Positions 33,474-53,113 of a DNA stretch of 64,000 bases are shown here, in pieces. Origin of the DNA: a virus. Position 1 is the first letter of the stretch, and each line of letters starts with the position of its first letter. The notes under the pieces were generated by a model. That model ran no database searches and was not told the DNA's origin. It was given only the letters and a program-made list of their open reading frames with translations. The stretch lies in the IMG/VR virus record IMGVR_UViG_3300031603_000002, positions 32,596-96,595 of that record, one strand, 5' to 3'. The position numbers were made by a program, and so were the translations under genes.

Positions 33474-33742
33474 GCGTCCTTGGCAAAATGCCAAAGAAAG
33501 GTGATCTGGTACGCCTGACAAGGCTCGAACTTTCATCGACGACTTTCGGCGAGGTGACAACATATAGTTGCACACGCAATAACTGGCGTCCAGCAATGTG
33601 TTCAGGGGTGACACGCTCACACGATGCGAAATATATAACATTACAATTTCACGACAGAATGGAGTGGTTTTTCTTTGAAGATGATAAAGACAAAGTGCCC
33701 TTCGCAAAATACGAATTAGGAGTAATAGAAAATGGAAAATGA
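33458..33742 (+). CDS. SH3-like hypothetical protein
   Basis: MPKKGDLVRL. Confidence 0.55.
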   Translation: MQKWVSVLGKMPKKGDLVRLTRLELSSTTFGEVTTYSCTRNNWRPAMCSGVTRSHDAKYITLQFHDRMEWFFFEDDKDKVPFAKYELGVIENGK

Positions 33743-34244
33743 AATCAAATATGTCAATGGTGACGCAACAAAACCAATCGGTGAAGGTATAAAGTATATC
33801 ACGCATATCTGTAATGATATCGGGGGATGGGGACGCGGGTTTGTCCTGTCTCTATCGAAGGAACATCCGCATGCTGAAACAGCATACCGGTCGTGGTATC
33901 AGCAGAATGATGATGAGTTGTTTGAGCTTGGACGCGTCCAGCTCGTCGAGTCGAAGGATAAAATCACCGTCGTGAACATGATTGGCCAGCATGGCATCTT
34001 TACCAAAGATGGCGTACCCCCAATTCGCTATCCTGCTGTTCGATCTTGCTTCCACCAGGTTGCGAAGTTTGCAATAGGTGTTGGCGCCTCGGTTCACATG
34101 CCTCGAATTGGTTGTGGGTTGGCAGGCGGTAAATGGTCTGAGATTGAGAAAATCGTGAACGAAGAGTTGATCGCGAAGGGCATCGAAGTCTATGTGTATG
34201 ATTTCGACACAAAAGATGCCCGCACAATCCCTTGGAAGAAGTAA
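33732..34244 (+). CDS. macrodomain ADP-ribose hydrolase (DarG/TARG1-like)
   Basis: GDAT, HICNDIGGWGRGF, NMIGQ, MPRIGCGLAGGKW. Confidence 0.9.
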   Translation: MENEIKYVNGDATKPIGEGIKYITHICNDIGGWGRGFVLSLSKEHPHAETAYRSWYQQNDDELFELGRVQLVESKDKITVVNMIGQHGIFTKDGVPPIRYPAVRSCFHQVAKFAIGVGASVHMPRIGCGLAGGKWSEIEKIVNEELIAKGIEVYVYDFDTKDARTIPWKK

Positions 34245-35160: not shown

Positions 35161-35943
35161 ATGCCAGAAGGCGCAGAATGCAAGCTAATTGGTGAGTCTC
35201 TAGCAAAAATGGTGGGCCTTCGTCGCGTTACGTCGATTGAGCCTATCACAGGAAGATATACAAAAAAGCCAATCGAGGGTGTTGAGAATATTCTCGGTGC
35301 CAAGGTCGTTGGCATCGGTGTTAAGGGGAAATTGCTCTTCTGGATATTCGATAACGACCACTTTCTATTAAACACATTGGGAATGTCGGGAGCCTGGTCT
35401 TCTGAGCAACCAAAGAATACCAGAGTCAGCATTGAATTTGACACCGGTAAGCCTGTCTATTTTGCTGACCCACGAGGTTTTGGGACGCTGAAGGCGATTT
35501 ACGGGCGCACGGCATTCCTAAAGAAGCTGGAATCTCTAGGTCCTGACATGCTGACTGAGCCACCGTCATTGGAGGAGTTCACGGCAAGACTGGACACAAA
35601 ACCCCATTGGACAATCTGTAAGGCATTGATGGACCAAGGAGTCATCTCAGGCGTAGGAAACTACGTAAAGGCAGAATCCCTTTACCGAGCGACCGTGTGG
35701 CCTGGGACGACCGTCGCGGCGATGTCCGGCAAGGAAATCAAAGGATTGTATCATGCGATTCTCGGGGTTCTGCAGGAGAGCTACGATTTAGGCTTGAGCG
35801 GGTTGTACGGTAATCATGACAGGTTTCAAGTGTACGGAAAGAAAACTGACCCGTATGGGAACGAAGTGAAGAAAACAGAGTTCTCAGACAAGCGTGTGAC
35901 GCATTGGGTTCCTGCCGTACAAGGCGTTCAAAATAAAGTGTAA
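35161..35943 (+). CDS. mutM: Fpg/Nei DNA glycosylase with zincless finger
   Basis: MPEG.E N-terminus, KGK, LGMSG, D.RGFG, LGPD, GVGNYVKAE. Confidence 0.9.
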   Translation: MPEGAECKLIGESLAKMVGLRRVTSIEPITGRYTKKPIEGVENILGAKVVGIGVKGKLLFWIFDNDHFLLNTLGMSGAWSSEQPKNTRVSIEFDTGKPVYFADPRGFGTLKAIYGRTAFLKKLESLGPDMLTEPPSLEEFTARLDTKPHWTICKALMDQGVISGVGNYVKAESLYRATVWPGTTVAAMSGKEIKGLYHAILGVLQESYDLGLSGLYGNHDRFQVYGKKTDPYGNEVKKTEFSDKRVTHWVPAVQGVQNKV

Positions 35944-36575: not shown

Positions 36576-36803
36576 ATGAAACTATCAGACAACAGCATTT
36601 CACAATTGGTACGGGTTTTGCAGCTCGCAATTCTCACCGGAACTGATGTAACGGACAACATTCGAATGATTCAATTCGTTGAGGAAGATGGATTCCTCGA
36701 GCTTGATGATGAGTATCTGTCGACGTTTGAAGACAATCTCACCAAACTTAGCGACAGCGGTGATGAAATCCGTGAAGCACGAGTTCCAAAGGACGCTAAC
36801 TAA
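36576..36803 (+). CDS. hypothetical protein
   Basis: LQLAILTGTDVTDNIR; coupled. Confidence 0.65.
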   Translation: MKLSDNSISQLVRVLQLAILTGTDVTDNIRMIQFVEEDGFLELDDEYLSTFEDNLTKLSDSGDEIREARVPKDAN

Positions 36804-37171
36804 TGGCTGATCGTCTCAATCGTATGTTCGTGCAACAACGGGCATTTATCAAACTTTTGGAGGAGAAGCGAGGACATCCCTCGGCTCCACTTGATTTGAC
36901 TGATAAAAAGAATCAGCAATTCCTGAAGCATTTATCGCATGAGTGTATGAATGAGCTTTTTGAGTCGATCGCCCACCTGAAAAACACAAAGATTCATCGA
37001 GCGACGAATTTGCCTGATTTCAATCGTGAGGAATATAAGGAAGAGCTCAGCGATGTGTTGCATTACCTAATTGGCATCATGATCTATTCTGATATCGACT
37101 ACGAAGAAATCTTTGAGATGTATATGAAGAAAGGTGAAGTCAACGTGAAACGAATCGAAACAGGATACTAA
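36803..37171 (+). CDS. all-alpha NTP pyrophosphatase (MazG/dimeric dUTPase/dCTPase-like)
   Basis: E..ELFE...KEELSDVLHY...Y.KK..VN..R...GY. Confidence 0.8.
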   Translation: MADRLNRMFVQQRAFIKLLEEKRGHPSAPLDLTDKKNQQFLKHLSHECMNELFESIAHLKNTKIHRATNLPDFNREEYKEELSDVLHYLIGIMIYSDIDYEEIFEMYMKKGEVNVKRIETGY

Positions 37172-37399
37172 ATGCTATCGCAAAATGTAAAGCAGAGAAT
37201 CAGGGGTGCAGTAGCGCTTGGTGCCCAAATTGTTGGGCCAAAGCTGGTTCCAACAACAGCTCACCCGGTGAGAAACCCACATGCCCATTTGTGGCGAGAA
37301 ATCAAAACAAAAATGGGCAAATCATATTCTGAATGTGAAGACGCCGATGAGAAAGAAATCATGGAAGTCATCAAGTTCTATGTCGAAAACCCGCGCTAA
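37172..37399 (+). CDS. hypothetical protein
   Basis: HPVRNPHAHLW...GKSY; coupled. Confidence 0.6.
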   Translation: MLSQNVKQRIRGAVALGAQIVGPKLVPTTAHPVRNPHAHLWREIKTKMGKSYSECEDADEKEIMEVIKFYVENPR

Positions 37400-37408
37400 A
37401 GAGAAATT

Positions 37409-38353
37409 ATGAAACTCAAGAAAATGCTGAAAAGGCAGAAGAAGTTTTCTGACTGCTTTTTCGATTCAAAGTCATTAACTGAAGCTGAAAAAATTGAGCT
37501 TCATAAAACCTTTTGCCTTTCGATGCACTCTGAGTTGTCATTCTTGGCGAACACGGTGCAATATCGAGATCATCGACCGACAAGCGTAGCGACCCATCGT
37601 GAGAACATTTTGTTCGAGACAATGGACGTTATGCGATATTCCATGGCGATGCTCAATTTGTGGGACTTCTCCATTGAAGAAATTGAGCATGCATTCAAGT
37701 CACGTGCAGCACATCTCGAAAATCGAAATGTAAAGAACATCGAAAGCTGGAATGGCAATCCCGTGATCATATGTGATATGGATGATGTCCTGACGCGGTT
37801 CCGCGAAGATTTCTATGGCTGGATAAATACAGCATACGACCAGGAATTAGATGAGAAATCAGGCGAGTATTACCTGAAGAGTACCGTTGAGGGAAAATCA
37901 AGTGATGCACTCCTTGCAGAATTCACTCACGGTGGGCATAATGAGGATCTAGGCGTTAACACTCATATGATTGCAGAACTAAAGCAACTTCATGATGCCG
38001 GCTACTGGATTCATATTTTGACAGCACGGCCATCGAGTAACCTGAAGTGCCTATATGAAACGTATGAATGGCTGGCAAAGCATGCCCCGTTTTTTGATTC
38101 TGTTTCATTGCAGTCAGAGAAATACCTCTGGTTGGCGAGCACCGAACCTTACAAGGCAGGACAGGTTGTATGCGCGATTGATGATTCGCCGAAACATGCA
38201 GCAGAATTTGCCCAGCACGGTATCCCAACACTGGTTCCAAAAAGGAATTACAACCGCTCAGTGTGGAAAAATGAGAACGTCACGTACTTCGATTGGGAGC
38301 GCGGATCGATTCAAAAATATGTTGCAGAATGCTTGAACAACATCGGCGCATAA
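37409..38353 (+). CDS. MazG-like domain fused to HAD 5'(3')-deoxyribonucleotidase
   Basis: N-term SEL...FETMDV.RY; C-term CDMDDVL, LTAR, IDDSP. Confidence 0.75.
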   Translation: MKLKKMLKRQKKFSDCFFDSKSLTEAEKIELHKTFCLSMHSELSFLANTVQYRDHRPTSVATHRENILFETMDVMRYSMAMLNLWDFSIEEIEHAFKSRAAHLENRNVKNIESWNGNPVIICDMDDVLTRFREDFYGWINTAYDQELDEKSGEYYLKSTVEGKSSDALLAEFTHGGHNEDLGVNTHMIAELKQLHDAGYWIHILTARPSSNLKCLYETYEWLAKHAPFFDSVSLQSEKYLWLASTEPYKAGQVVCAIDDSPKHAAEFAQHGIPTLVPKRNYNRSVWKNENVTYFDWERGSIQKYVAECLNNIGA

Positions 38354-38397
38354 GTTACTATATCTAAAGTTCGACAACACAAAAAAGGAGCACAATC

Positions 38398-39333
38398 GTG
38401 ACGGCTACAAGAGGATTCAAGGATATTGAGGTTACCCTATTGGACAGTGGAAACCCAGAACCATTCAAGATGTTTTGGAATTGGTACCGTGAGACATGGT
38501 ATTCACTTCGAAACCAGGAGTACGACCCGAAGAACCCTGAGCATCGTAAAGCATGTGAGGATGTGGTCGCAGCACGTGCTCTTCCGATTCCCCAGGAGGC
38601 CCTAAGCTTCCAGGTTCGTGTCGAGGGACTTAGTCGGGTTGGACTGGCACAATTCACAAGAGGCCGTATTGGGTGGGCCTATGTTGTGACGTCGCAAATG
38701 CCAGAGGCAATCGAGCATGCAGTTACGGTTCCAACCAATGTCTACGATTTTGGTTTTGGAGACGAGGCTGAGAAGTTGGTTGCAAAGTCACAGGAATTGT
38801 ACGACAAAATGCTTGAGGCAGGTATTCCTCCACAAGATTGTCGATACCTGACGATTCATGGCCAACAAACAAACCTCACATGTGTGGTCAACTTCATGGC
38901 CCTAAAAGGCTACTTTGCCCGCCGGTGTGAAAATGGTCTGACTGACGAGTTGAATTTGGTTGGTCGTAAGATTCTGTGTGAGCTGAAAAAGGTGCATCTC
39001 AATGCCGATGGAACCGACAAGGTCGTAGGTTCAGGCTGGTCTTTCTTGATGACTAAGCTCGAAGCGATGGGAGGTAATCGCCATTGTCTAAACAGCGACA
39101 AGGTTTTCGGCAATACGGGTCGTGCAGAGAGCGCAGGCCAATGGATTCCATCGCTTGTGAATGAAAACAACCTATGCGATTTTGATTTCAGCAAATCAGC
39201 GTGGTACAAAGAATTGCTTGAGTTACCAGACGAATTATTGTTCGCCGGTGAGAGAGAAATGATCAACGACTGGAAATCGATTGGTTTTAAGGGTCGTCTC
39301 AACAAGCTTGCAGGTCGCCCGGTGAGCAAGTAA
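38398..39333 (+). CDS. divergent ThyX-family flavoprotein
   Basis: E.LSF..EGLSR..AQFTRGR...SQ, YDKMLEAGIP.QDCRY, N...L..YF.RR; RHR motif altered to RGR. Confidence 0.75.
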   Translation: MTATRGFKDIEVTLLDSGNPEPFKMFWNWYRETWYSLRNQEYDPKNPEHRKACEDVVAARALPIPQEALSFQVRVEGLSRVGLAQFTRGRIGWAYVVTSQMPEAIEHAVTVPTNVYDFGFGDEAEKLVAKSQELYDKMLEAGIPPQDCRYLTIHGQQTNLTCVVNFMALKGYFARRCENGLTDELNLVGRKILCELKKVHLNADGTDKVVGSGWSFLMTKLEAMGGNRHCLNSDKVFGNTGRAESAGQWIPSLVNENNLCDFDFSKSAWYKELLELPDELLFAGEREMINDWKSIGFKGRLNKLAGRPVSK

Positions 39334-40382
39334 TGGCCGAGATATTGACGGCAGCTGATTTTGCAAGTTTCAAATCCCTAAAACAGGGCGGGTTCTCTAA
39401 CAAAGACCAGGATGCAATCTTGGCTAAGATCGTACAATATCTCAAACAAATTGATGGGTTCCCAAGTGAGTATCCATTGACAGGTCGTCCGTTTCCAGAG
39501 AACCCGACATTCAAAGACATCAGGTCGTTCGATGATGAATCGGTGCTGCTGTCAGAGAGTGGTTCAGCAGAAAATGAAGATTGGCATAAGGTTTACAACA
39601 AACCGTCGTATGTCCTGAATTCGTTCTGCTATTACCATTTTGGTTCAAATACGATGATGAATGCATTGATTAGTGCGTTCGGAAAGTTTGAATATATGCC
39701 AAAGGTGATTCTGGATTTCGGGGGCGGTTGTGGACTGACAACGGCACACTTGGCTAGGGCCTTTCCTGATACAGAGGTTCACGTTCTAAATAAGCCAGGT
39801 ATCCAGTTGGAGCTGGCGAAGAATTTTGCAGACAACATCGACAACATGTTCGCGCATGAGATTGATGATTATGACGATGAGATTCCTTTGAAGGCGGACG
39901 TTGTCGTGGCCCTTGATGTTTTCGAACATGTCTATAGGCCCCTCGAGGTCCTGGACAAAATTGTCACACCTGATTGCAAGTTCTTCGTTGAGAACACACC
40001 GTTCAAGACTCCTGGACTTGGACACTTTTCGTTGTTCGAAACGTATGGTCACCCATGTTCCAGGAGGGCATCTCGAAATACAGACCGGGATGCACTTCGC
40101 AAAGCGCTAAAAGACAATGTTTCAATCGATGAAATTATTGCCGCTGGAATTGTCCCGGATGTCAACATCTTATTCAATCACAGGATTCGTCATCACGGAT
40201 TTCATGATGGAGTTGTAAAGCTGTTCAATTCACGTCCAAAGGTTCATATCAATGCTGACATTTGTGAAGAAATTGATGAGAGAACGAAGGATTGGTCAAG
40301 GAATACTCGCCGCCTGATGAAAAATGGTTCCCTCAAGGCTGACTACCGAAAGAAGATGGAAGTCCCGGAGAATCTACAATGA
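39333..40382 (+). CDS. class I SAM-dependent methyltransferase
   Basis: VILDFGGGCG, DVVVALDVFEHV. Confidence 0.8.
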   Translation: MAEILTAADFASFKSLKQGGFSNKDQDAILAKIVQYLKQIDGFPSEYPLTGRPFPENPTFKDIRSFDDESVLLSESGSAENEDWHKVYNKPSYVLNSFCYYHFGSNTMMNALISAFGKFEYMPKVILDFGGGCGLTTAHLARAFPDTEVHVLNKPGIQLELAKNFADNIDNMFAHEIDDYDDEIPLKADVVVALDVFEHVYRPLEVLDKIVTPDCKFFVENTPFKTPGLGHFSLFETYGHPCSRRASRNTDRDALRKALKDNVSIDEIIAAGIVPDVNILFNHRIRHHGFHDGVVKLFNSRPKVHINADICEEIDERTKDWSRNTRRLMKNGSLKADYRKKMEVPENLQ

Positions 40383-40912
40383 GCCAGCAGATCGTGATAT
40401 TCGATGGTCCGGACAATTGTGGCAAAACCAATATGGCATTGGATTTGGCAAAGCGGACTCGCGTTACATACTTCAAAAACAAGGACGAACACAAATATTT
40501 CCTGTCAGATCCGTCGTACTTCAAGAACGCGATTCGCTATGTGGACACGTATTTCACATCTTACCTCGAGGCATCTGGCAATTCGGTCATTCTGGATAGG
40601 GCGTGGCCATCAGAGTACGTCTACAGTCATGTTCTGAATAGGCCAACAGACATGGCGGTTTTAGAGGCCTTAGATGCAAGGCATGCAGTGTTAGGCACGA
40701 AGATTATCATCCCATTTCGGACTGATTATTCGATGTGCAAAGACGATTATAAGATTGTGAATGACACAATCAAAAACATTCATGATAGGTATCATGAGTT
40801 TGCAGAGTGGTCAAAGTGTCGCACTCTGCTATTGAACGTAGACGATGAAGATCTCAGTCGAGAAATGGATGAAATCCTTCCATTTTTGGGTATGGCTAAT
40901 CTCACAAAGTAG
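40379..40912 (+). CDS. deoxynucleoside monophosphate (thymidylate-like) kinase
   Basis: IFDGPDNCGKT, ILDRAWPSEYVYS. Confidence 0.85.
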   Translation: MSQQIVIFDGPDNCGKTNMALDLAKRTRVTYFKNKDEHKYFLSDPSYFKNAIRYVDTYFTSYLEASGNSVILDRAWPSEYVYSHVLNRPTDMAVLEALDARHAVLGTKIIIPFRTDYSMCKDDYKIVNDTIKNIHDRYHEFAEWSKCRTLLLNVDDEDLSREMDEILPFLGMANLTK

Positions 40913-40920
40913 GAAAATAA

Positions 40921-41118
40921 ATGACATTTCAAGAGTTGAAAAAAGAGAATATAAAAGGTGCGAAATCAATAGGCTATCATGTTTATCACGAATCACCAGA
41001 TTGTGTGATTTTGTGCAAGAACGATTTCGCGCAGGAGTGGATAGTCACCAATGAGGGCATTCTCGCAAATGGTAGGCCCACCACTGAAGTTGAGCGCACA
41101 TGGTTACGCAACCAGTAA
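40921..41118 (+). CDS. hypothetical protein
   Basis: AGGA SD. Confidence 0.5.
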   Translation: MTFQELKKENIKGAKSIGYHVYHESPDCVILCKNDFAQEWIVTNEGILANGRPTTEVERTWLRNQ

Positions 41119-41160
41119 ATTACTTTTTTACATTTCTACAATAACAGATACTTATTAACC

Positions 41161-41337
41161 ATGAACAAAGCAACAATCAACATCGACAAAAACCTACACA
41201 AAAAACTGAAATTGCATTGTGCAATTCATGGTGTAAAACTAGGCACGCTCGTTGATAAGATTGTTGAGGGGTGGTTGGAAGATGCTGGTAGAAATAACGA
41301 GAGAGAACGGGATCCGCGAAGCGATTCTCAAGTGTGA
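41161..41337 (+). CDS. ribbon-helix-helix DNA-binding protein (not in ORF track)
   Basis: MNKATINIDKNLHKKLKLHCAIHGVKLGTLVDKIVEGWL, 58 aa; ATACTTA 6 nt upstream. Confidence 0.7.
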   Translation: MNKATINIDKNLHKKLKLHCAIHGVKLGTLVDKIVEGWLEDAGRNNERERDPRSDSQV

Positions 41338-42220
41338 CCAATGTGATGATACGTTCAGAAAAACGTTTGGTTTCACAAAAAGATTTCATTTTTGTTCAAA
41401 GAAATGTGTATACGCAGCCCAAAGAAAAGGCGGTGTGTCGTATGAACTAAGAAAGAAAAGGTCACTTGAAAAGCATGGTACAGAATTTCCGATGTCAACT
41501 GACGCCGTCAAAAACACCCGCAGAAAAAACGTTAGGGCGAAATATGGTGTCGACAGCGTGTTTCAACTTGAAAGCATGAAGGAAAAGTCAAAACAGACAT
41601 GCCTTGAAAAGTACGGTGTTGAGGTTTATTCACAGGTTGATGAGTTTAAGGAACGCATCGCAGCAACTAACATGACGAAATTTGGCTATGGATCTCCAAT
41701 CGAAAATCCTGACGTTTTGGCGCGCCGCCGTACAACAATGCTTCGATTGTATGGAGGTCGATCAACATTCGAATCGCCTGTATTGCGCGAGCGAGCAAAA
41801 CGAACATGCCTTGAAAGATACGGTGTGCCAAATATCGTTTATTCACCATCATTTATTAGTTCATCGATGGACAAAAAACTCATGAAAACCCATGGTAAGA
41901 CATGGCAGCAATACAAAGACGAGCTACCTGCAAATCACGATTATAGACGAAGGGTCGATCATGTAACGAGAATGCAGCCAATTCATTTGCTTCAAAACAG
42001 CGAAAAAAGAGGTGAGTATCACTTGGACCACAAATATTCAGTAGCAGAAGGCTTCAGGAATAACGTCCCAGTTGAAATTATCGGGAGCATTGCAAATCTT
42101 GAATTTATACCCGCGACTGATAACATGAAAAAGGGCGCAGCATGCTCTATTACTGAACAACAGTTACGAAAACTATACTATACTAATCTAAAGGAGAACA
42201 CAAACAATGAAAACACATAA
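41282..42220 (+). CDS. free-standing HNH-like homing endonuclease with T.LEKYG repeats
   Basis: CDQC/FCSKKC; repeated KQTCLEKYGV-type units; YHLDHKYS...NLEFIP...N..K. Confidence 0.75.
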   Translation: MLVEITRENGIREAILKCDQCDDTFRKTFGFTKRFHFCSKKCVYAAQRKGGVSYELRKKRSLEKHGTEFPMSTDAVKNTRRKNVRAKYGVDSVFQLESMKEKSKQTCLEKYGVEVYSQVDEFKERIAATNMTKFGYGSPIENPDVLARRRTTMLRLYGGRSTFESPVLRERAKRTCLERYGVPNIVYSPSFISSSMDKKLMKTHGKTWQQYKDELPANHDYRRRVDHVTRMQPIHLLQNSEKRGEYHLDHKYSVAEGFRNNVPVEIIGSIANLEFIPATDNMKKGAACSITEQQLRKLYYTNLKENTNNENT

Positions 42221-42662
42221 ATGCTATCTTGCAGCCGGCTGGTTCAATCCCATTCAAGCCCAGGAACTAGATAAACTCGAGTCAGTACTTGACACCCGAG
42301 CCGATTGGATTGACTTAGCATCACCACGCAGAATCTTTATTTGCCCGCCAAACGCGTCAAAGGAGGTTCAAGACTCTACATACCATGGTAACCTGAAGCA
42401 TATTCGTGAGGCAGATTTTTTGATTGCAAATACGCGCGATAAAGATTTGGGTACGATCATGGAATGCGGCTATGCCGCAGCACATAAAAAACCGATCGTT
42501 TATTTCTGTGACGGACTGCCAGCGGGCGCCAAGTTCAATTTGATGCTGGCAAGATCGGCAATCAAGGTATGCACCTCATTCGACGAGCTTAATGATTACC
42601 TCGACCGATGCCACACGGCAGGTGAGCTTTTGGAGGAGCCATATGACGCAGCAATCGAATAA
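42207..42662 (+). CDS. nucleoside 2-deoxyribosyltransferase / nucleotide N-glycosidase family
   Basis: YLAAGWF, D.GT..ECGYA...KPI, FNLML. Confidence 0.85.
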   Translation: MKTHKCYLAAGWFNPIQAQELDKLESVLDTRADWIDLASPRRIFICPPNASKEVQDSTYHGNLKHIREADFLIANTRDKDLGTIMECGYAAAHKKPIVYFCDGLPAGAKFNLMLARSAIKVCTSFDELNDYLDRCHTAGELLEEPYDAAIE

Positions 42663-42951: not shown

Positions 42952-43271
42952 TTCGCGGTACCTGCAAGGTTGGTGACTTAGTTTGGACGATCGGCCGAGG
43001 TATGCCGCATGCTGTTCGTCCTGGTTTGGTGACACGAGTAATAGCACCAACACACATCGAGTCGACATGGGATAAATATGAAGTCCTAGTCGATGGCCAG
43101 AAGAAAGAATTTTATGCAGAAAGCGTTTGTGAGTCAGAGGAGAAAGCTGAAAAGGTAGCTGTTGAATGCCGCCGCAACTCAGTCAGTCGTACAGGACAAA
43201 CATACCTTGAATCTGGTTTTGTTTATGCTCCGTATGTCCCGTTGGAAGTCACACCAACGCTGGTTGTTTAG
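42948..43271 (+). CDS. SH3-like protein with C-terminal capsid-protein-like peptide
   Basis: KVGDLVWTIG scaffold; tail GQTYLESGFVYAPYVPLEVTPT resembles the gp23 C-terminal strand. Confidence 0.7.
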   Translation: MIRGTCKVGDLVWTIGRGMPHAVRPGLVTRVIAPTHIESTWDKYEVLVDGQKKEFYAESVCESEEKAEKVAVECRRNSVSRTGQTYLESGFVYAPYVPLEVTPTLVV

Positions 43272-44191
43272 GGCCAGTTGGCCATAGCGGCTGCTTCATC
43301 ACGCAAAAACTTTTTGTAGCCGGCGGCACTTTCCACATCAACTGAAATAGCTGCCGCTGGAATTCTTGAGTATGTCCAAAACGATTTGCCTTTGTACCGC
43401 GACGTGGCAAATTCTGAATCTTCATAAAATTTCGTTCCGGGCAGCAATTTGCTCGTGTCAATTCTAAGAAACGTATAGTCCTCATAGTCGGATGCACTCG
43501 CGTCCGGACCATCATCCTGAAATGAAAAGGAGAGCTCGTCTGCCAATTCAAGACTTTGTGTGACGTATACTCGCGGGGAGTATTGCCGACCTTGTTTAAG
43601 CTTTTCTCCCGACTCGCTGTCTTTCCACTTATCTTCTTCAGTTGCATGCGACGCCTGCCGAGGGATTAATCCCTGTCGCAGGATCTTTTTTACGTCGTGT
43701 GATCTGGTGACGTGATATAGGTGAGATTCTGTTTCACTTACACGGTCGCCATAGTTTCTTTCGAGGTTATAACGAAGTTCTCGGGCAGGTGGTGGCCGAT
43801 GATTTGCAGAAAGAACCGACCATCCATAATTTTTAGATGTTTTTCGAATTATATCGTCTGCACGTTTTTCGACCATCGTTCTAATTGGTCCTGGGCTCAA
43901 AAATTGAGAAATATAAAACTCTATGACAACATATCCTGAGCCTCGATGTTGTTGCGCGATGTGTGACGCGTTCGAAATATCATCACGGACAAACCTTTCT
44001 AGCTTGTCATCATCACGAAGACCTGTCGATCCACGCAGTTTCGCTTTCATTTCACTCTTCGCGTCCGGCTCAGACAAAAGTTTCTTGATTTCTAAATTCA
44101 GGCGCTTTACTAAATGCTCAGCACCGACGGGCTGCATGCGTTTCTCAGCGAGTAATGTTTCACGAATTAATTGACGAAGTGTGTTAGTCAT
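43268..44191 (-). CDS. leader-bearing ADP-ribosyltransferase (Tpt1/KptA-like fold)
   Basis: LYHVT...ILRQGLIP...RVYVT...LRID...FYED...FWTYSRIP; N-term MTNTLRQLIRETLLAE; ATATTTA 5 nt upstream. Confidence 0.75.
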   Translation of the reverse strand: MTNTLRQLIRETLLAEKRMQPVGAEHLVKRLNLEIKKLLSEPDAKSEMKAKLRGSTGLRDDDKLERFVRDDISNASHIAQQHRGSGYVVIEFYISQFLSPGPIRTMVEKRADDIIRKTSKNYGWSVLSANHRPPPARELRYNLERNYGDRVSETESHLYHVTRSHDVKKILRQGLIPRQASHATEEDKWKDSESGEKLKQGRQYSPRVYVTQSLELADELSFSFQDDGPDASASDYEDYTFLRIDTSKLLPGTKFYEDSEFATSRYKGKSFWTYSRIPAAAISVDVESAAGYKKFLRDEAAAMANWP

Positions 44192-44221
44192 ATCATTAAA
44201 TATCGTGTAGTTCGCACCACG

Positions 44222-44249
44222 TGTAAATGGCGAAAAAACGTGGTATAAT
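44222..44249 (+). promoter_or_regulatory. sigma70-like promoter
   Basis: TGTAAA-16-TATAAT with TG extension. Confidence 0.75.
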
Positions 44250-44306
44250 ATGAACACGAGGCGTTCACACGTCGAGGACAATAAAACTCAACGGAGGGAT
44301 GATTAT

Positions 44307-45821: not shown

Positions 45822-46733
45822 ATGAAGATATACACCAAAACATGCCAAGTTTGCGATTGCAAATTTGAAACGAAGAACGGGACAGTGAAAACCTGCGGGA
45901 AAACCTGTAGTTACAAGCTTAGGAACAAAACCAGGCACACTAAACATGAACCAATTGAGAAGGTGTGCCTGGTTTGCTCTGGAACGTTCCAAGACACCAG
46001 CAAAAAGAAACAGGTGTCCAAATGTTTTCCGTGCGTCCAGGACGGAATGGTGGCCACCAGAAGGGCAAATGGAAGCTATGTCCGGACTGACGAGCAGAAT
46101 GCGAAACTTAGTGCATCGCTAAATAAGATGTATGCAGCCGGAATCGGGTTTGTGTCTGATGAAGCAAAAGAGAGGATGTCGAAAGACTTAGCGGCTCGCT
46201 GGAAAACCGAAGAATTCAGAACAAAGGTGAAACAAGGATATTTGGAAAACCATGGTGTCGAGCACTGGACGAAAACACCTGAAGCTCGCAAACTTGCAAG
46301 CACCCGAAGTAAAGGATATCGGCACTCTGAAGAAACAAAACGAAAAATGAGAATATCGGCCTCAAAACGTATCCGTGAAGGCAGGAACAAACATTCATTT
46401 TTTGGCCGCGGGGGAACCCGTGAGGATCTAGGGTTGTATGTTCGAAGCAGTTGGGAAGCTAACTTCGCACGTTACTTGGCTCATGAAGGAAAAGTATTTG
46501 AATATGAACCTGACAGTTTCACGCTTGAAAGTGGAAGAACATACACACCGGATTTCAAAGTTGGTGATTTGTATTACGAAGTGAAGGGTTGGTGGACACC
46601 CAGGGCGAAAGAAAAGTTTGCTGAATTTAGGGTGCAATACCCTGAAGTAAAAATTGAAATAGTCGATGAATCTGCGTATAATGATCTTTGTGGACGATAC
46701 TCATCCACAATACAACACTGGGAATCTAAATGA
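45822..46733 (+). CDS. free-standing PD-(D/E)XK homing-type endonuclease with NUMOD3 and Zn ribbons
   Basis: CxxC repeats, KGYRHSEETKRKM, RSSWEANFA...YEP...YTPDF...EVKG; ATACTTA 5 nt upstream. Confidence 0.8.
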   Translation: MKIYTKTCQVCDCKFETKNGTVKTCGKTCSYKLRNKTRHTKHEPIEKVCLVCSGTFQDTSKKKQVSKCFPCVQDGMVATRRANGSYVRTDEQNAKLSASLNKMYAAGIGFVSDEAKERMSKDLAARWKTEEFRTKVKQGYLENHGVEHWTKTPEARKLASTRSKGYRHSEETKRKMRISASKRIREGRNKHSFFGRGGTREDLGLYVRSSWEANFARYLAHEGKVFEYEPDSFTLESGRTYTPDFKVGDLYYEVKGWWTPRAKEKFAEFRVQYPEVKIEIVDESAYNDLCGRYSSTIQHWESK

Positions 46734-49700
46734 CAGGTATTCTAACTCCTCCGGATCGCTTTGTGTCTATACACGGCCATTCCGATTTTTCGCCGTATGA
46801 CGGTCTAGGGCACCCCAGCCAACACATTGACTTCTGTTTGTCGAACGAGCTGGACGCCTGGACACTGACAGATCATGGCAATGGCAACGGGCTGGCACAT
46901 GCTCATGCACATGCTAAAAAGCTAAAGAAACAGGGCAGGAACTATCGTCAAATCTACGGCGTTGAGTTCTACTTTGTCCCGTCTCTAAAAGAATGGGCAA
47001 CAAACCGTGCCGCTCAAAAAGACGCAAAAAAGGTGGGACGTGAAGATACTGATAAGGAAGCCGGCCTTGTAGTTGAAGATGTGGCCGAATCCCGCGTGGA
47101 CATTTCAGGTTTCAATGTAAACCGTCGCCACCACCTCGTTGTCATTGCAAAAAACGCAACCGGTCTTTCGAACCTATTCACATTGGTGAAGCGCTCTTTC
47201 ATGGAGGGGTTCTACAGGTTTCCACGAATTGACTATGAGATGCTGAAGGAGCACGGCGAAGGCCTTGTAGTTTCTACGGCATGCGTCTCAGGTCGCCCAG
47301 CAGGCATCATTTTCCAGGAGTTTCCTGATACAAAGTTCATGGGGTTGAATCCCGGACTTGTTGACGACGCAAAATTGCGTGGTAAGATCGTTGGAAATAT
47401 CGAGAACATGATTGACCGCTTCACAGACTGTGTGGGTGTTGACAACTTCTTCTTGGAATTGCAGTTCAATGAGCTCGGGGCGCAGGACCTAACAAACCGT
47501 TGTGTTCTTGATGCTGCTAAAAAGACAGGAACCCGCTTGATTTCGACCGCTGATTCTCACTTTCCTGGTCCTGACCTTTGGAAGGCTCGTGAGATTTATC
47601 GCAATTTGCTTCCCGGCCGGATGAAGGTTGGCGAAGAGATTAAATTGCCCGAGCGTGAAGATATGAAGACCATGCTTTACCCGAAGAACGCAAAACAAAT
47701 GTGGGACGAATACCTGAAGTGTCGTGACAAGTATGACTGGTATGAAGGAACAGAAGATCTGGTTCGTGGTTCCATTGAGAACGGCCACGATGTTGCATGG
47801 CAAATGTGCGACGAGGTCTGGTTCGACACATCAGCCAAATTGCCATCATTCGATAGACCTGAAAAATCAGCATTCGACCAGCTCCGAGATAACGTGAAGC
47901 AGGCTTTGGTTGATGAAGGCCTGTCGAAAGACAAGGTTTACGTCGCCAGAGCGTTGTCAGAGTTAAGCGACATCAAGTTCCTAGGCTTTGAAAACTACTT
48001 CTTGACGCTACAGAAGGTGATGCATCTCGCTGAGCAAAAGACATTGATGGGTGCAGGACGTGGTTCTGGCGCCGGTTCATTGGTGAATTACCTTCTGGGC
48101 ATCACCCATGTTGACCCAATCCCGCATGGCTTGCTTTGGAGCAGGTTCCTTGGGCGTCACCGTGTCGGTTGGCCTGACATCGATGTTGACGCTGGAGACC
48201 GTGATGAGCTGATTTTCGCAGCCCGAGAACTGTTCGGCGACGACTCAGTAATCCCAGTCTCGAACTTCAATACACTGAAATTGAAATCGCTGGTCAAGGA
48301 TGTTTCGAAGTTCTTCGGTGTCCCATTCACTGAAGTCAATGCGGTCACAGGACCATTGGAGAAAGAGGTCGAGCGGAAATCACGTGATCCGAATATGGAG
48401 AAGTCCATGTTTGTGCTCAAGCATGATGATTGCATGAAGTACTCAAAAGCATATAAAGCGTTCATGGAGAAATATCCTGATGTCGAGAGTAACATCAAGG
48501 CTCTCTTCATGATGAATCGATCTGTTGGTCGCCATGCAGGTGGTGTTCTGATTTGTCCTGAATTGGAAAAGTCGATGCCGCTAATCAAGGTCCGCGGAGA
48601 GCTTCAAACGCCATGGACTGAAGGTGTAAACATTCGGAACCTTGAAGAGAACGGGTTCTTGAAATTCGACTTCCTCGGTCTCAAGCAAATGAAAATGGTG
48701 GAGAGTTGTATTCGACGAATCCTGAAAAAGGAAACTGGGAAAGCTCCAACATTCCTTGAAATCAAGGCATTCTATGATGACAAACTCAACTGTCGATACG
48801 TGAAACCTGATGATACCACTGTCTTCGACAACGTGTATAAGCAAGGTAAGTGGCCAGGCATCTTCCAGTTTACATCAAGCGGAGCCCGCAAGTTCTGCAA
48901 AGATGCCCAGGTCAATAATGTGACCGAGTTGGCGGCCGTGACTGCAATTTATCGTCCTGGTCCGCTAAAAGCCAATGTGCATAAGGATTATGTGAAAGCT
49001 AAGGGAAACCCTGCAGCACAGGTCTACGATCATCCTGTTATTAAGGAGGTCTTGGAGGAAACGTGCGGCTTCATTGTGTTTCAGGAGAGTTTCATGCTCT
49101 TGGCTGTCAAACTTGCTGGATTTACCGAAGGTGAGTCTGATAAGATGCGGAAAACGCTGGTGAAGAAGGACCTGACGTCATTAGGTTCGAAAACATCTGA
49201 GAAGGCAATCCTTGAAAAGAAATTCGTGGATGGTTGTATTGAGAAAAGTGGCATGCCTCGCAAGAAAGCGCAGGACTTGTTTGATAAGATTGCGTACTTC
49301 TCATTGTACGGTTTCAACAAGTCACATGCAATTGCGTATGCCATCGATTCGTATTACGGAGCATGGTTGCTGACCCACTATGAGAAGGAATGGCTGGCAA
49401 CTGTCCTTGAAACAGAGAATGGCAGCCCGAAGGGTCTTTCGAAGGCGCTGGCTGAAATCAAGGAGCTCGGACATGCAATCGCGAAGGTCGATGTGAACTA
49501 TTCAGACTTCGAGTGGACATTTGCTGAGGCTGCAGGTGCTTTCGTGCCTCCGATGGCAGCAGTAAAGGGTATTGGTAAGGTCGCCATGCGTGAGATTATC
49601 AGCCAACGGCCATTCAAAACGCTTGATGCACTATTCTTCGATGAGGATGGCAACTGGAAACTGAGCAAGGCTAACAAAACAGCCTTGAAAGCACTCTGCA

Positions 49701-50287
49701 AAATTGAAGCCATGGATTCATTGGAAGATATTCACAATGGATCAGTTCTAAACTACAGGCAACTACTGTTTGCGCTCACTGACGACAAGAATTACATCAA
49801 ACTCAAGCGTGGCAACCTGGGAATGACGACGGCAGCAATCAAAAAGGCAAATAAGCTTGGAGAGGTGCCACCATTGTTCCTGGAAACTGAATTGGCCCGG
49901 TTCGCTGACATCAACGATTGGACTCGAGCTGAAAAGGTTGAAATGTCATACGAGTTAACGGCAGCAGCTAACACCGAGTTGCTGTTTCCACCCAAACTCA
50001 TGGCACATCTTGAATCAAAAGGTATCCCAAAGCTGCATGACATTCCACAAGGCCATGAGGGCATCGGCTGGATGTGTATTGAGACGATTCAGCGTAAGAA
50101 AACGAAGAATGGAAAGGCGTTCATGCGTTGCCGTGTGATTGATAATGAATCACGAATTGCATGGTTGCGTGTCTGGGGCAAAGAAAAGACAAAAGTCGAG
50201 CCGTATACATTATGGTTGGCGTATACCAAGCACGACGCTGACTGGGGACACTCCACGGCAGCATACAAAATGAAGCAAATTCTGTAG
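46730..50287 (+). CDS. dnaE: DNA polymerase III alpha subunit (family C)
   Basis: PHP H.HS.FS.DG/TDHG, GRGSGAGSL, PDIDVD, HAGG, KFDFLGL, YRPGP, YGFNKSHA. Confidence 0.97.
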   Translation: MTGILTPPDRFVSIHGHSDFSPYDGLGHPSQHIDFCLSNELDAWTLTDHGNGNGLAHAHAHAKKLKKQGRNYRQIYGVEFYFVPSLKEWATNRAAQKDAKKVGREDTDKEAGLVVEDVAESRVDISGFNVNRRHHLVVIAKNATGLSNLFTLVKRSFMEGFYRFPRIDYEMLKEHGEGLVVSTACVSGRPAGIIFQEFPDTKFMGLNPGLVDDAKLRGKIVGNIENMIDRFTDCVGVDNFFLELQFNELGAQDLTNRCVLDAAKKTGTRLISTADSHFPGPDLWKAREIYRNLLPGRMKVGEEIKLPEREDMKTMLYPKNAKQMWDEYLKCRDKYDWYEGTEDLVRGSIENGHDVAWQMCDEVWFDTSAKLPSFDRPEKSAFDQLRDNVKQALVDEGLSKDKVYVARALSELSDIKFLGFENYFLTLQKVMHLAEQKTLMGAGRGSGAGSLVNYLLGITHVDPIPHGLLWSRFLGRHRVGWPDIDVDAGDRDELIFAARELFGDDSVIPVSNFNTLKLKSLVKDVSKFFGVPFTEVNAVTGPLEKEVERKSRDPNMEKSMFVLKHDDCMKYSKAYKAFMEKYPDVESNIKALFMMNRSVGRHAGGVLICPELEKSMPLIKVRGELQTPWTEGVNIRNLEENGFLKFDFLGLKQMKMVESCIRRILKKETGKAPTFLEIKAFYDDKLNCRYVKPDDTTVFDNVYKQGKWPGIFQFTSSGARKFCKDAQVNNVTELAAVTAIYRPGPLKANVHKDYVKAKGNPAAQVYDHPVIKEVLEETCGFIVFQESFMLLAVKLAGFTEGESDKMRKTLVKKDLTSLGSKTSEKAILEKKFVDGCIEKSGMPRKKAQDLFDKIAYFSLYGFNKSHAIAYAIDSYYGAWLLTHYEKEWLATVLETENGSPKGLSKALAEIKELGHAIAKVDVNYSDFEWTFAEAAGAFVPPMAAVKGIGKVAMREIISQRPFKTLDALFFDEDGNWKLSKANKTALKALCKIEAMDSLEDIHNGSVLNYRQLLFALTDDKNYIKLKRGNLGMTTAAIKKANKLGEVPPLFLETELARFADINDWTRAEKVEMSYELTAAANTELLFPPKLMAHLESKGIPKLHDIPQGHEGIGWMCIETIQRKKTKNGKAFMRCRVIDNESRIAWLRVWGKEKTKVEPYTLWLAYTKHDADWGHSTAAYKMKQIL

Positions 50288-51867: not shown

Positions 51868-52710
51868 ATGAGTAGAGTTAATCCTAGTGATGTTAACGTG
51901 GTGATTTACCATGCAAAGTGTTCTGATGGTATGGGCGCAGCATATGCAGCCTGGAAGCTATTGGGGAACAGGGCGGAGTACATTCCATGTGCACACGGAA
52001 ACCCACCACCCGATGTCAAAGGTAAGAACGTCGCAATTCTTGATTTTTCGTTCCCAAATGCGGTGACGAAACAGATGATTGAAGATGCGAACTCGCTGAT
52101 TATCATTGACCACCACAAAAGTGCGATGGTTGAGTTGCACGACATTTCTGAAACAATATTCGACATGAATAATTCAGGTGCGTCGATGGCGTGGTTGTGG
52201 TTCCACCCGGACAAAAGTGTCCCGAAATTCATTCAGTATATTACTGACCGTGACCTTTGGAAGTTTGAGCTGCCATATTCTAAGGAATTCAGTCGTGCAT
52301 TCGACATGGTCCCATTTGATTTCGAGGACTATGAAAAATTCGAAGACGACAGCGTATTTGATGATGCAGTTAAGCGTGGAAGCTATATTCTGGCATACAC
52401 AAAAACAGTTGTCAAGACACTGATGGAAAAAGCAGCGAAACGGAAACTGCAGGGTCACGATGTGTTGGTTATCAACTCTCAGCACCTGATGTCAGAGCTA
52501 GGCGCCGCAATGGCGATGAAGGCAGATCTTGCTGTGATTTGGTTCTACGATCATCACAGCAACAAAACGAAAGTCAGCTTACGAGGCCAGCATGCGATCG
52601 TAGATGCATCAGAGATTGCAAGGAAGTTCGGTGGCGGTGGCCACGCAAATGCATCCGGTTTCATAATCGACGGCATGGACATTGAGGGCATTTTTGATGT
52701 CGAAGAATGA
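51868..52710 (+). CDS. DHH/DHHA1 phosphoesterase
   Basis: YH..C.DG, IDHH, SLR, GGGGH..ASG. Confidence 0.9.
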   Translation: MSRVNPSDVNVVIYHAKCSDGMGAAYAAWKLLGNRAEYIPCAHGNPPPDVKGKNVAILDFSFPNAVTKQMIEDANSLIIIDHHKSAMVELHDISETIFDMNNSGASMAWLWFHPDKSVPKFIQYITDRDLWKFELPYSKEFSRAFDMVPFDFEDYEKFEDDSVFDDAVKRGSYILAYTKTVVKTLMEKAAKRKLQGHDVLVINSQHLMSELGAAMAMKADLAVIWFYDHHSNKTKVSLRGQHAIVDASEIARKFGGGGHANASGFIIDGMDIEGIFDVEE

Positions 52711-53113
52711 AAGACCGTCATGGGATTCGATCTGGATGCAATTTGCCAGAACGATTTCCCATAGAAGCATTGACCCTCGCTGGAAGGTGGGTGCTATTGT
52801 TGTGTCAGGGAATAACACTCAACTCTTGGCAGTAGGATATAATGGCGACGAGGCCGGTGGGTCTAACGAGGTTGAATCTGCACTCCCAGGTGAAAGTGGA
52901 TGTATTCATGCCGAAATCAATGCTTTGATAAAAATGGACTACAACAATCCTGTCGACAAACGAATGTACGTGACATTGTCACCATGCGCATCGTGCGCTA
53001 AAGCAATCGTCAACGCCGGTATTGATGAAGTCATTTATGACGTGAAATACCGCGATGAGAGAGGAATCGAACTCCTACAAAATTCTGGCACTTCAGTTCG
53101 TCAATTTGAATAG
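52697..53113 (+). CDS. dCMP deaminase
   Basis: VGA, GYNG, HAEINAL, SPCASC. Confidence 0.9.
   Translation: MSKNERPSWDSIWMQFARTISHRSIDPRWKVGAIVVSGNNTQLLAVGYNGDEAGGSNEVESALPGESGCIHAEINALIKMDYNNPVDKRMYVTLSPCASCAKAIVNAGIDEVIYDVKYRDERGIELLQNSGTSVRQFE

Follow-up and report, generated by a model that had tools for sequence, protein, structure and literature searches.

Base replacement in phage T4 relies on gp56, a deoxycytidine triphosphatase (dCTPase), gp42, a deoxycytidine monophosphate (dCMP) hydroxymethylase, and gp1, a deoxynucleoside monophosphate (dNMP) kinase, and phages of the SPO1/phi-e type carry 5-hydroxymethyldeoxyuridine (5-hmdU), with a deoxyuridine monophosphate (dUMP) hydroxymethylase and enzymes that degrade deoxythymidine tri- and monophosphate (dTTP and dTMP). 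To our knowledge, every phage route to a C5-modified pyrimidine that has been characterised begins with an enzyme of the ThyA fold. The gene clusters for thymidine hypermodification combine a dUMP hydroxymethylase with the P-loop kinase 5-HMUDK and with aGPT-Pplase (PMC8989533). Here we describe a nucleotide-metabolism module whose central gene encodes a divergent relative of the flavin-dependent thymidylate synthase (FDTS) ThyX. It lies in a stretch of 64,000 nucleotides (the window), which is the last 64 kb of the 96.6-kb IMG/VR virus record IMGVR_UViG_3300031603_000002, a jumbo phage fragment with a CheckV completeness of 28%. We put at about 0.5 the probability that this ThyX-like protein is a neofunctionalised paralogue of ThyX, vertically conserved in an uncultured jumbo phage lineage, and it is about an even bet that the module acts before replication and makes a non-canonical, C5-modified pyrimidine nucleotide.

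The ThyX-like gene starts with a GTG codon 6 nucleotides after AAGGAG. Pfam Thy1 matches its product with 60.1 bits (cut-off 24.8) and covers only amino acids (aa) 51-200 of the 311; no PHROG match was found, a single-sequence search of the PDB returned nothing significant, and a profile of the family reaches only H. pylori ThyX there (E 3e-4). An AlphaFold (AF2) model, built on 80 family members, has a predicted local distance difference test score (pLDDT) of 94.1 and matches T. maritima ThyX (1o26/5iot) with Z 14.5 and a root mean square deviation of 2.7 Å over 202 of about 218 residues. The next structural matches are PolB and the M. tuberculosis (Mtb), H. pylori and PBCV-1 enzymes, and every strong match in whole-model searches is a ThyX chain. 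Profile-profile alignment (hhalign) against 21 canonical ThyX sequences gave 99.8% probability and E 1.9e-27 over residues 6-200.

This alignment also upholds, residue by residue, the equivalences that the original prediction had drawn by eye. The strings ALPIPQEA, LAQFTRGR and SQMP, proposed as the counterparts of the H53 region, of ARQWFRHR and of SGRY, are all present in the translation, and the counterparts of S88, R147 and R174 are retained as claimed. The retained residues (T. maritima = window) include E58=E67, Q75=Q85, R78=R88, R80=R90, S88=S99, R147=R149, N163=N165 and R174=R176, while the changed positions are H53 to L62, H79 to G89, G89 to Q100, R90 to M101, Y91 to P102, E144 to Q146 and R165 to M167. 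The canonical RHR-x7-8-S motif is thus read as RGR-x8-S, with both arginines and the serine kept and the histidine replaced by glycine in at least 90% of the 80 family members. SxRY is read as SQMP, in which M101 and P102 are invariant. His53 and Glu144, which we take to line the folate site of ThyX, align with L62 and Q146; both residues are also mutated in the folate-complex structures 4gtf and 4gte (from the same work as 4gt9), going by titles that name H53A and E144R, and R90A, Y91F, S88A and R174A occur among the mutant or ligand structures that were matched. In the Mtb enzyme, dUMP is held by R87, R95, S105, R107 and R199, and Y108 forms a lid that shields the uracil C5 and the flavin N5 from solvent (PMC6514825). 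Four of the five dUMP contacts survive in the ThyX-like protein, in which Mtb R87 (the 'SR' arginine), R95, S105 and R199 correspond to R80, R88, S99 and R176; the R107 equivalent (M101) and the lid tyrosine (P102) are lost. Beyond the ThyX fold, a conserved extension of about 110 residues (aa 201-311), absent from canonical ThyX, contributes the invariant residues C230, D234, V236, G238, G241, R242, F264, S267 and E272.

More than 150 homologous proteins of about 310 aa were found, at 46-91% identity and all metagenomic, and 80 aligned family sequences share 47 invariant columns. A profile search of the whole library returned 25 representatives below E 1e-30, followed by a second tier of ~320-aa proteins that share the extension and only then by ordinary ThyX, at positions 5-202. 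Across this long-form superfamily the RHR position is read as RGR, RQR, RHR or RE[KQ], and the Arg-Tyr of SxRY is missing from every long form. Among viral structure models, too, those that resemble the protein best over its full length come from uncultured phages. No member of the family was found in 185,579 prokaryotic species representatives (one genome each), and tblastn against cultured phages returned only canonical ThyX, at no more than 32% identity over less than 60% of the query. No fused forms of 546-2000 aa were found, which is weak evidence. The ratio of nonsynonymous to synonymous substitution (dN/dS) between the ThyX-like gene and that of its nearest relative is 0.09; beyond this relative synonymous sites are saturated, yet protein identity holds at 57-73%. 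The gene is under purifying selection and, on these findings, is a functional, virus-only gene. We found no description of the family in the literature. Among the weaker structural matches, in BFVD, is A0A127AWA5 of Bacillus phage SP-15, a 413-aa ThyX-fold 'thymidylate synthetase'. The DNA of phage SP-15 contains a hypermodified uracil (dihydroxypentyluracil).

Two genes of the ThyX family are present in 8 of 10 related virus records, including one that is 93% complete, and the two records without a second copy are only 12-17% complete. One copy is canonical (122-165 bits, 211-266 aa), with the His, RHR (or KHR) and SxRY motifs all in place, and the other is the divergent form (57-70 bits). 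While the divergent copy is conserved vertically, the canonical copies are visibly of different ThyX subtypes. ThyA was not found in the record of the window or in any of five relatives tested. A recent duplication of the canonical gene was rejected as the origin of the divergent copy, since the two copies of the nearest relative have no BLASTP similarity. One related genome, G003, carries two parallel synthase-kinase pairs: a canonical ThyX with a canonical thymidylate kinase immediately after it (L021:1417-2768), and the divergent ThyX with the kinase that belongs to it. Together these findings argue that the divergent copy, which is a second and non-redundant one, does something that canonical ThyX does not. 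The canonical ThyX of G003 also has a long insertion between its RQWW motif and SGRY.

Gene order was then compared across 17 related viral loci, which were searched by tblastn with the proteins of the window. The conserved order is Fpg, a small open reading frame (ORF), an all-alpha nucleoside triphosphate (NTP) hydrolase, a second small ORF, a MazG-HAD fusion, the ThyX-like gene, a kinase, a nucleoside 2-deoxyribosyltransferase (NDT), in some loci an endonuclease, PolIII alpha and an epimerase. As in a base-replacement module with a dedicated kinase, the kinase lies downstream of the ThyX-like gene in all 16 of the 16 loci that extend past the latter, and the gap between them is within about 30 bases in most. 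NDT is found in 14 of the 17 loci, and MazG-HAD and the all-alpha NTPase in 11 each. In the most distant loci (57-61% identity) only the kinase remains and the other neighbours differ; the kinase is the invariable partner of the ThyX paralogue. The genes of the module and the three flanking genes discussed below are as follows.

35161..35943, + strand: Fpg/Nei-type DNA glycosylase (Pfam Fapy_DNA_glyco, H2TH and C-terminal domain)
36576..36803, + strand: conserved 75-aa ORF (96% identity in L002; found in 9 related loci)
36803..37171, + strand: all-alpha NTP pyrophosphatase, dimeric dUTPase/MazG-like (Pfam dUTPase_2, 27.8 bits, cut-off 22.9; phrog_12184, E 2e-14)
37172..37399, + strand: conserved 75-aa ORF (95% identity in L002; present in several relatives, duplicated in L017)
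37409..38353, + strand: fusion of a MazG-like NTP pyrophosphatase (aa 1-107) with an NT5C/HAD 5'-deoxynucleotidase (aa 115-292) (phrog_173; NT5C, 28.3 bits)
38398..39333, + strand: ThyX-like protein, ThyX fold (aa 6-200) with C-terminal extension (aa 201-311) (Pfam Thy1)
39333..40382, + strand: class I S-adenosylmethionine (SAM)-dependent methyltransferase of small-molecule type (Pfam Methyltransf_12/23/2)
40379..40912, + strand: P-loop kinase of the thymidylate kinase/deoxynucleoside kinase (TMPK/dNK) family, by profile and fold (phrog_761, E 1e-11)
40921..41118, + strand: 65-aa ORF without family match
41252..42220, + strand: homing-endonuclease-like gene (Pfam DUF7487, 90 bits; phrog_3339 and phrog_12131, homing endonuclease)
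42207..42662, + strand: NDT family protein (Pfam Nuc_deoxyrib_tr, 52.4 bits, cut-off 28.8; phrog_7995, E 5e-27)
46730..50287, + strand: DNA polymerase III alpha (DnaE-type) replicase (Pfam PHP, DNA_pol3_alpha, finger and HHH_6)
52682-53113: dCMP deaminase (Pfam dCMP_cyt_deam_1, 74.5 bits)

The six genes that had been named earlier, from the NTP pyrophosphatase to the deoxyribosyltransferase, were all found on the + strand within 36803-42662 and with the families given; that list had left out three small ORFs and the homing-endonuclease-like gene between the kinase and the deoxyribosyltransferase. Neither of the two 75-aa ORFs (36576..36803 and 37172..37399) has a Pfam or PHROG match, and the 65-aa ORF (40921..41118) has neither of these nor a match in the related loci.

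The kinase carries the motifs GPDNCGKT (P-loop) and LDRAW. The profile of its family aligns, across both the P-loop and the LDR motif, with the thymidylate kinases 5xbh (E 8e-4) and 2pbr (E 2e-3), and its AF2 model (pLDDT 93) finds deoxyadenosine kinase, thymidylate kinases and the SPbeta protein YorR as best Foldseek matches (TM 0.55-0.68). These results place it in the TMPK/dNK family, with a nucleoside or nucleotide as the putative class of substrate. The proposed name of dNMP kinase is borne out at the family level only. An identity as 5-HMUDK was set aside, as profile and fold point to TMPK/dNK. With tblastn, no match to the kinase was obtained at E 1e-3 in 50,697 phage records, among which the phages with published 5-HMUDKs should be represented (M6 gp54, ViI gp67, PhiW-14 gp37).

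The remaining enzymes of the module bear on the suggestion that it destroys the normal nucleotide. Two all-alpha NTP pyrophosphatase domains and an NT5C/HAD nucleotidase, which are candidates for such a role, are present, the latter with an NT5C score above its Pfam cut-off (24.8), matches to phrog_415/420/2643, and the HAD motif DMDDV followed later by DD. The deoxyribosyltransferase, however, is of the base-swapping type and not clearly nucleotide-destroying. Its DLGTIMECG aligns with DTGTAWELG of PDB 6evs (E 5e-5), which includes the catalytic Glu of DxGTxxExG, and its match to DNPH1/Rcl is weaker (E 0.15), so that of the two activities first proposed the transferase is closer and the Rcl/DNPH1-type N-glycosidase less so. 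In one locus (L003:10183-11361) one ORF of 392 aa carries a GIY-YIG endonuclease domain followed by an NDT-family domain.

Of the readings considered, a modified pyrimidine is the best available one for a second ThyX that is non-canonical, conserved, selected and paired with a kinase; the product itself is a prediction, as follows. The ThyX-like protein would still bind a pyrimidine deoxynucleotide, most likely dUMP supplied by the phage dCMP deaminase, together with flavin. The C5 product would differ from dTMP, as the lid tyrosine and one arginine are gone, the folate site is rebuilt and a C-terminal element has been added. An exocyclic methylene intermediate of ThyX has been discussed (PMC8989533), and a first guess is that such an intermediate is captured by water or another nucleophile to give, for example, 5-hydroxymethyl-dUMP, which would be the simplest route. 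Phosphorylation by the partner kinase would then bring the product closer to a triphosphate for the PolIII-type replicase encoded next to the module. Canonical nucleotides that compete with it would be trimmed, depleted or recycled by the deoxyribosyltransferase, the HAD nucleotidase and the all-alpha pyrophosphatases. The genes for the homing endonuclease and the SAM methyltransferase are, on this reading, later insertions that the module does not need.

Several observations weigh against this interpretation. The window's own record, 28% complete, contains only the divergent copy and no second ThyX. In G001, the 93%-complete relative, 41 kb separate the two ThyX genes, and the canonical one is located in the direction that would run past the end of the window's record; this synteny makes the absence an expected effect of truncation; for the phage of the window, coexistence of the two copies is thus inferred rather than seen. 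G001 has no canonical Tmk and no trimeric dUTPase. The neighbouring genes, with a dUTPase-like NTPase, a TMPK-like kinase and a dCMP deaminase, would also fit an ordinary supply line for dTTP, and no known downstream hypermodification gene was seen. Loss of the folate site could mean lost rather than new catalysis, and the structural model is a ligand-free monomer, while the active sites of ThyX lie between subunits. Finally, the family is absent from cultured phages, among which a megablast search with the cluster gave no match.

Part of this evidence would be explained if the divergent ThyX were an ordinary second thymidylate synthase that makes dTMP, perhaps with another reductant or one-carbon carrier or at another time, in a cluster devoted to the ordinary supply and salvage of dTTP (dUTPase-like NTPase, ThyX, thymidylate kinase, nucleotidase and NDT). 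The arginines at the core of the nucleotide site are retained together with the serine, the neighbours and the dCMP deaminase of the genome suit dTTP synthesis, and atypical ThyX proteins are known in the PDB (3ge9, 3fnn). A trimeric dUTPase was not found in the two most complete relatives, for which reason the dUTPase_2-like NTPase may simply be the phage's dUTPase, and in G001, which lacks Tmk as well, both the kinase and the NTPase of the module may have ordinary roles. We nevertheless consider this explanation rather unlikely. A canonical ThyX, of several subtypes, is kept by 8 of 10 relatives, which suggests that the divergent copy does not meet their need for a thymidylate synthase; G003 has its separate canonical ThyX-Tmk pair; and the lid tyrosine, the Arg90 equivalent, the RHR histidine and both folate-site residues are invariantly lost.

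The original prediction coupled the methyltransferase to the ThyX-like gene through a TAATG overlap. This overlap is indeed present in the sequence, and a second one (ATGA) joins the methyltransferase and kinase genes. The protein matches Pfam Methyltransf_12 (36.7 bits, cut-off 30), Methyltransf_23 (29.6, cut-off 27) and Methyltransf_2 (26, cut-off 22.3) over aa 108-212, its motif I is LDFGGGCG, and its sequence matches in the PDB are only generic small-molecule methyltransferases at E 1e-3 or weaker. It is a genuine class I, small-molecule-type SAM methyltransferase and not a DNA methyltransferase. A single homologue (92% identity) was found among 5.8 billion proteins; there was no match in cultured phages, viral contigs or metagenome contigs, and none in five related genomes, including the 93%-complete nearest relative. 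The co-occurrence check proposed for the ThyX-like protein and the methyltransferase gave 0 of 17 loci and 0 of 5 genomes, and a role of the methyltransferase as a pathway partner is thus not supported. In L002, L010 and L017 the same junction between the ThyX-like gene and the kinase holds homing endonucleases of NUMOD3/TnsA type, and this occupation in three relatives marks the junction as an insertion hotspot. The GC content of the methyltransferase gene matches that of the genes beside it, which speaks against very recent acquisition from a distant source. Taken together, the single homologue, the absence from relatives and the hotspot junction make it a strain-specific accessory insertion outside the conserved module, and we would keep it out of the pathway model as a correction to the original proposal.

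The inserted gene might still act locally, by further methylating the product of the module, for instance through O-methylation of a hydroxymethyl group, and such a strain-specific step would be compatible with the modified-pyrimidine reading. The insertion lies exactly within the operon with coupled translation, one of the Pfam matches is of O-methyltransferase type (Methyltransf_2, E 7e-6), and there are related viral methyltransferase clusters in the ESM Atlas. Against it stand the complete lack of co-occurrence evidence and a slot that is a hotspot for unrelated selfish or accessory genes, the contents in relatives being homing endonucleases there and, in L014, an AdoMet decarboxylase after the kinase; we regard the extra step as improbable.

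A ThyX fold that has lost catalysis and serves as a nucleotide-binding regulator, or as a scaffold for a kinase or replication complex, appears quite improbable. The loss of the folate-site His and Glu, of the RHR histidine and of the lid tyrosine would be understandable in such a pseudoenzyme, and distant members of the long family vary even the second RHR arginine. However, the substrate-binding residues R80, R88, S99, R149 and R176 are retained, the dN/dS of 0.09 points to constraint, and the new invariant polar residues of the extension (C230, D234, GNTGR at 238-242, S267 and E272) look like those of an active site and not of a scaffold.

The original mechanism, in which the ThyX-like protein and the adjacent SAM methyltransferase together form a folate-independent methylation route or a methylated-base pathway with SAM as methyl donor, is very improbable and, as a general mechanism, appears largely refuted: translational coupling on both sides, a GC content like that of the neighbours, the small-molecule type of the enzyme and the lost folate-site residues speak for it, but more than 150 ThyX-like proteins and 17 loci are conserved without the methyltransferase, the methyltransferase has one homologue and gave no match in the phage, viral, metagenome and related-genome searches, and in most relatives the kinase follows the ThyX-like gene within about 30 bases or, in three, after a homing endonuclease.

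Further insertions were noted around the module. The homing-endonuclease-like gene at 41252..42220 is absent from the 17 related loci and has the lowest GC content at third codon positions (GC3) of the cluster, 0.40; it is an insertion between the kinase and NDT genes. The junction endonucleases of the relatives (L002:8912-9919, L010:8924-9793, L017:8927-9794) are 259-285 aa long; all three have a TnsA-like/endonuclease I nuclease, and L002 and L010 have NUMOD3 as well. In the latter two loci the part of the kinase that precedes the P-loop is replaced, with STGQI... where other copies have IIFDGPD, and a weak extra kinase-like stretch is present in L002 (L002:8976-9146); the kinase of these two loci may be a split or intron-interrupted gene. 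No Rfam match to a group I intron was obtained at gathering score around the endonuclease insertions of the window, L002, L003, L010 and L017. The AdoMet decarboxylase of L014 lies at L014:5119-5496, and in L009 a glutamine-synthetase-like (amidoligase-type) ORF is located directly upstream of the ThyX-like/kinase pair (L009:6923-7939).

Around the module, the + strand encodes RecA, a 5'-3' exonuclease, DnaB, a class II ribonucleotide reductase, a Dam-type methylase, an ATP-dependent ligase, the Fpg/Nei glycosylase, PolIII alpha and the epimerase. The glycosylase upstream of the module is syntenic in 9 of 17 related loci (L002, L004, L006, L007, L009, L011, L016 and L018 among them), and PolIII alpha was found by tblastn in the downstream flank of most. 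In three loci (L003:11436-15487, L008:10590-15404 and L018:12259-14297) PolIII alpha aligns to the window gene in two pieces with 0.5-1.4 kb between them, a pattern suggestive of inteins or of intron/endonuclease elements inserted into this gene. The dCMP deaminase was found in 4 of 5 relatives and can supply dUMP to the ThyX enzymes. Upstream of the module, a 170-aa protein (33732-34244) is possibly another nucleotide-processing enzyme; its PHROG match is phrog_335 'phosphatase' (E 7e-32), and it has a conserved counterpart in the nearest relative. The sole long minus-strand ORF of the neighbourhood (43268-44281, 337 aa) matches nothing in Pfam or PHROG, and tblastn found no counterpart of it in the related loci.

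If the modified-pyrimidine reading is true, a ThyX-fold enzyme with a rewired folate site and without a tyrosine lid would add to the flavin chemistry that acts on nucleotides and might bring to light a new DNA base in abundant uncultured jumbo phages, with relevance to restriction evasion, to sequencing bias in viromes and to enzyme tools. More speculatively, and at somewhat less than even odds, this branch of the ThyX fold could constitute a new flavin-dependent pyrimidine-nucleotide modifying enzyme with a private kinase, which supplies a non-canonical deoxynucleoside triphosphate and replaces a base partly or fully in widespread uncultured jumbo phages, and to which the methyltransferase might add a methyl group in the phage studied here. 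Since the family is large, conserved and easily expressed, the question is directly testable.

Compared with known systems, the ThyX-like protein shares the fold of canonical ThyX/FDTS (EC 2.1.1.148; T. maritima TM0449, M. tuberculosis and H. pylori; PF02511) and an above-cut-off Pfam match, but it differs in having about 16% identity to these enzymes, in replacements of H53, H79, R90, Y91, E144 and R165 that are fixed in the family, and in its 110-aa C-terminal extension. PolB of polyoxin biosynthesis, a UMP/dUMP C5-methylase (PDB 4p5a/4p5b), ranks with ThyX among the structural matches (Z 13.9) and is the nearest precedent, as a neofunctionalised bacterial ThyX paralogue. PolB keeps the canonical ThyX motifs. 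It is a second ThyX whose use of substrates has changed while a housekeeping copy is kept (PMC5954106). Whereas PolB is bacterial and serves antibiotic synthesis, the ThyX-like protein is virus-only as far as the searches reach, has rewired motifs and the extension, and is linked to a kinase and a replicase. The thymidine hypermodification clusters likewise place a synthase homologue beside a P-loop kinase; the kinase here, unlike theirs, resembles TMPK/dNK nucleotide kinases in profile and fold, and no aGPT-Pplase-like gene was noticed in the cluster. Going by its genes, the module resembles the T4 and SPO1 modules in the kinds of parts it combines, with a thymidylate-synthase homologue, a dedicated kinase and predicted NTP pyrophosphatase and nucleotidase activities, all set among replication genes. 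It departs from them in the ThyX fold of the synthase homologue, which, should our reading hold, would give the ThyA-type dUMP/dCMP hydroxymethylases their first counterpart of ThyX type.

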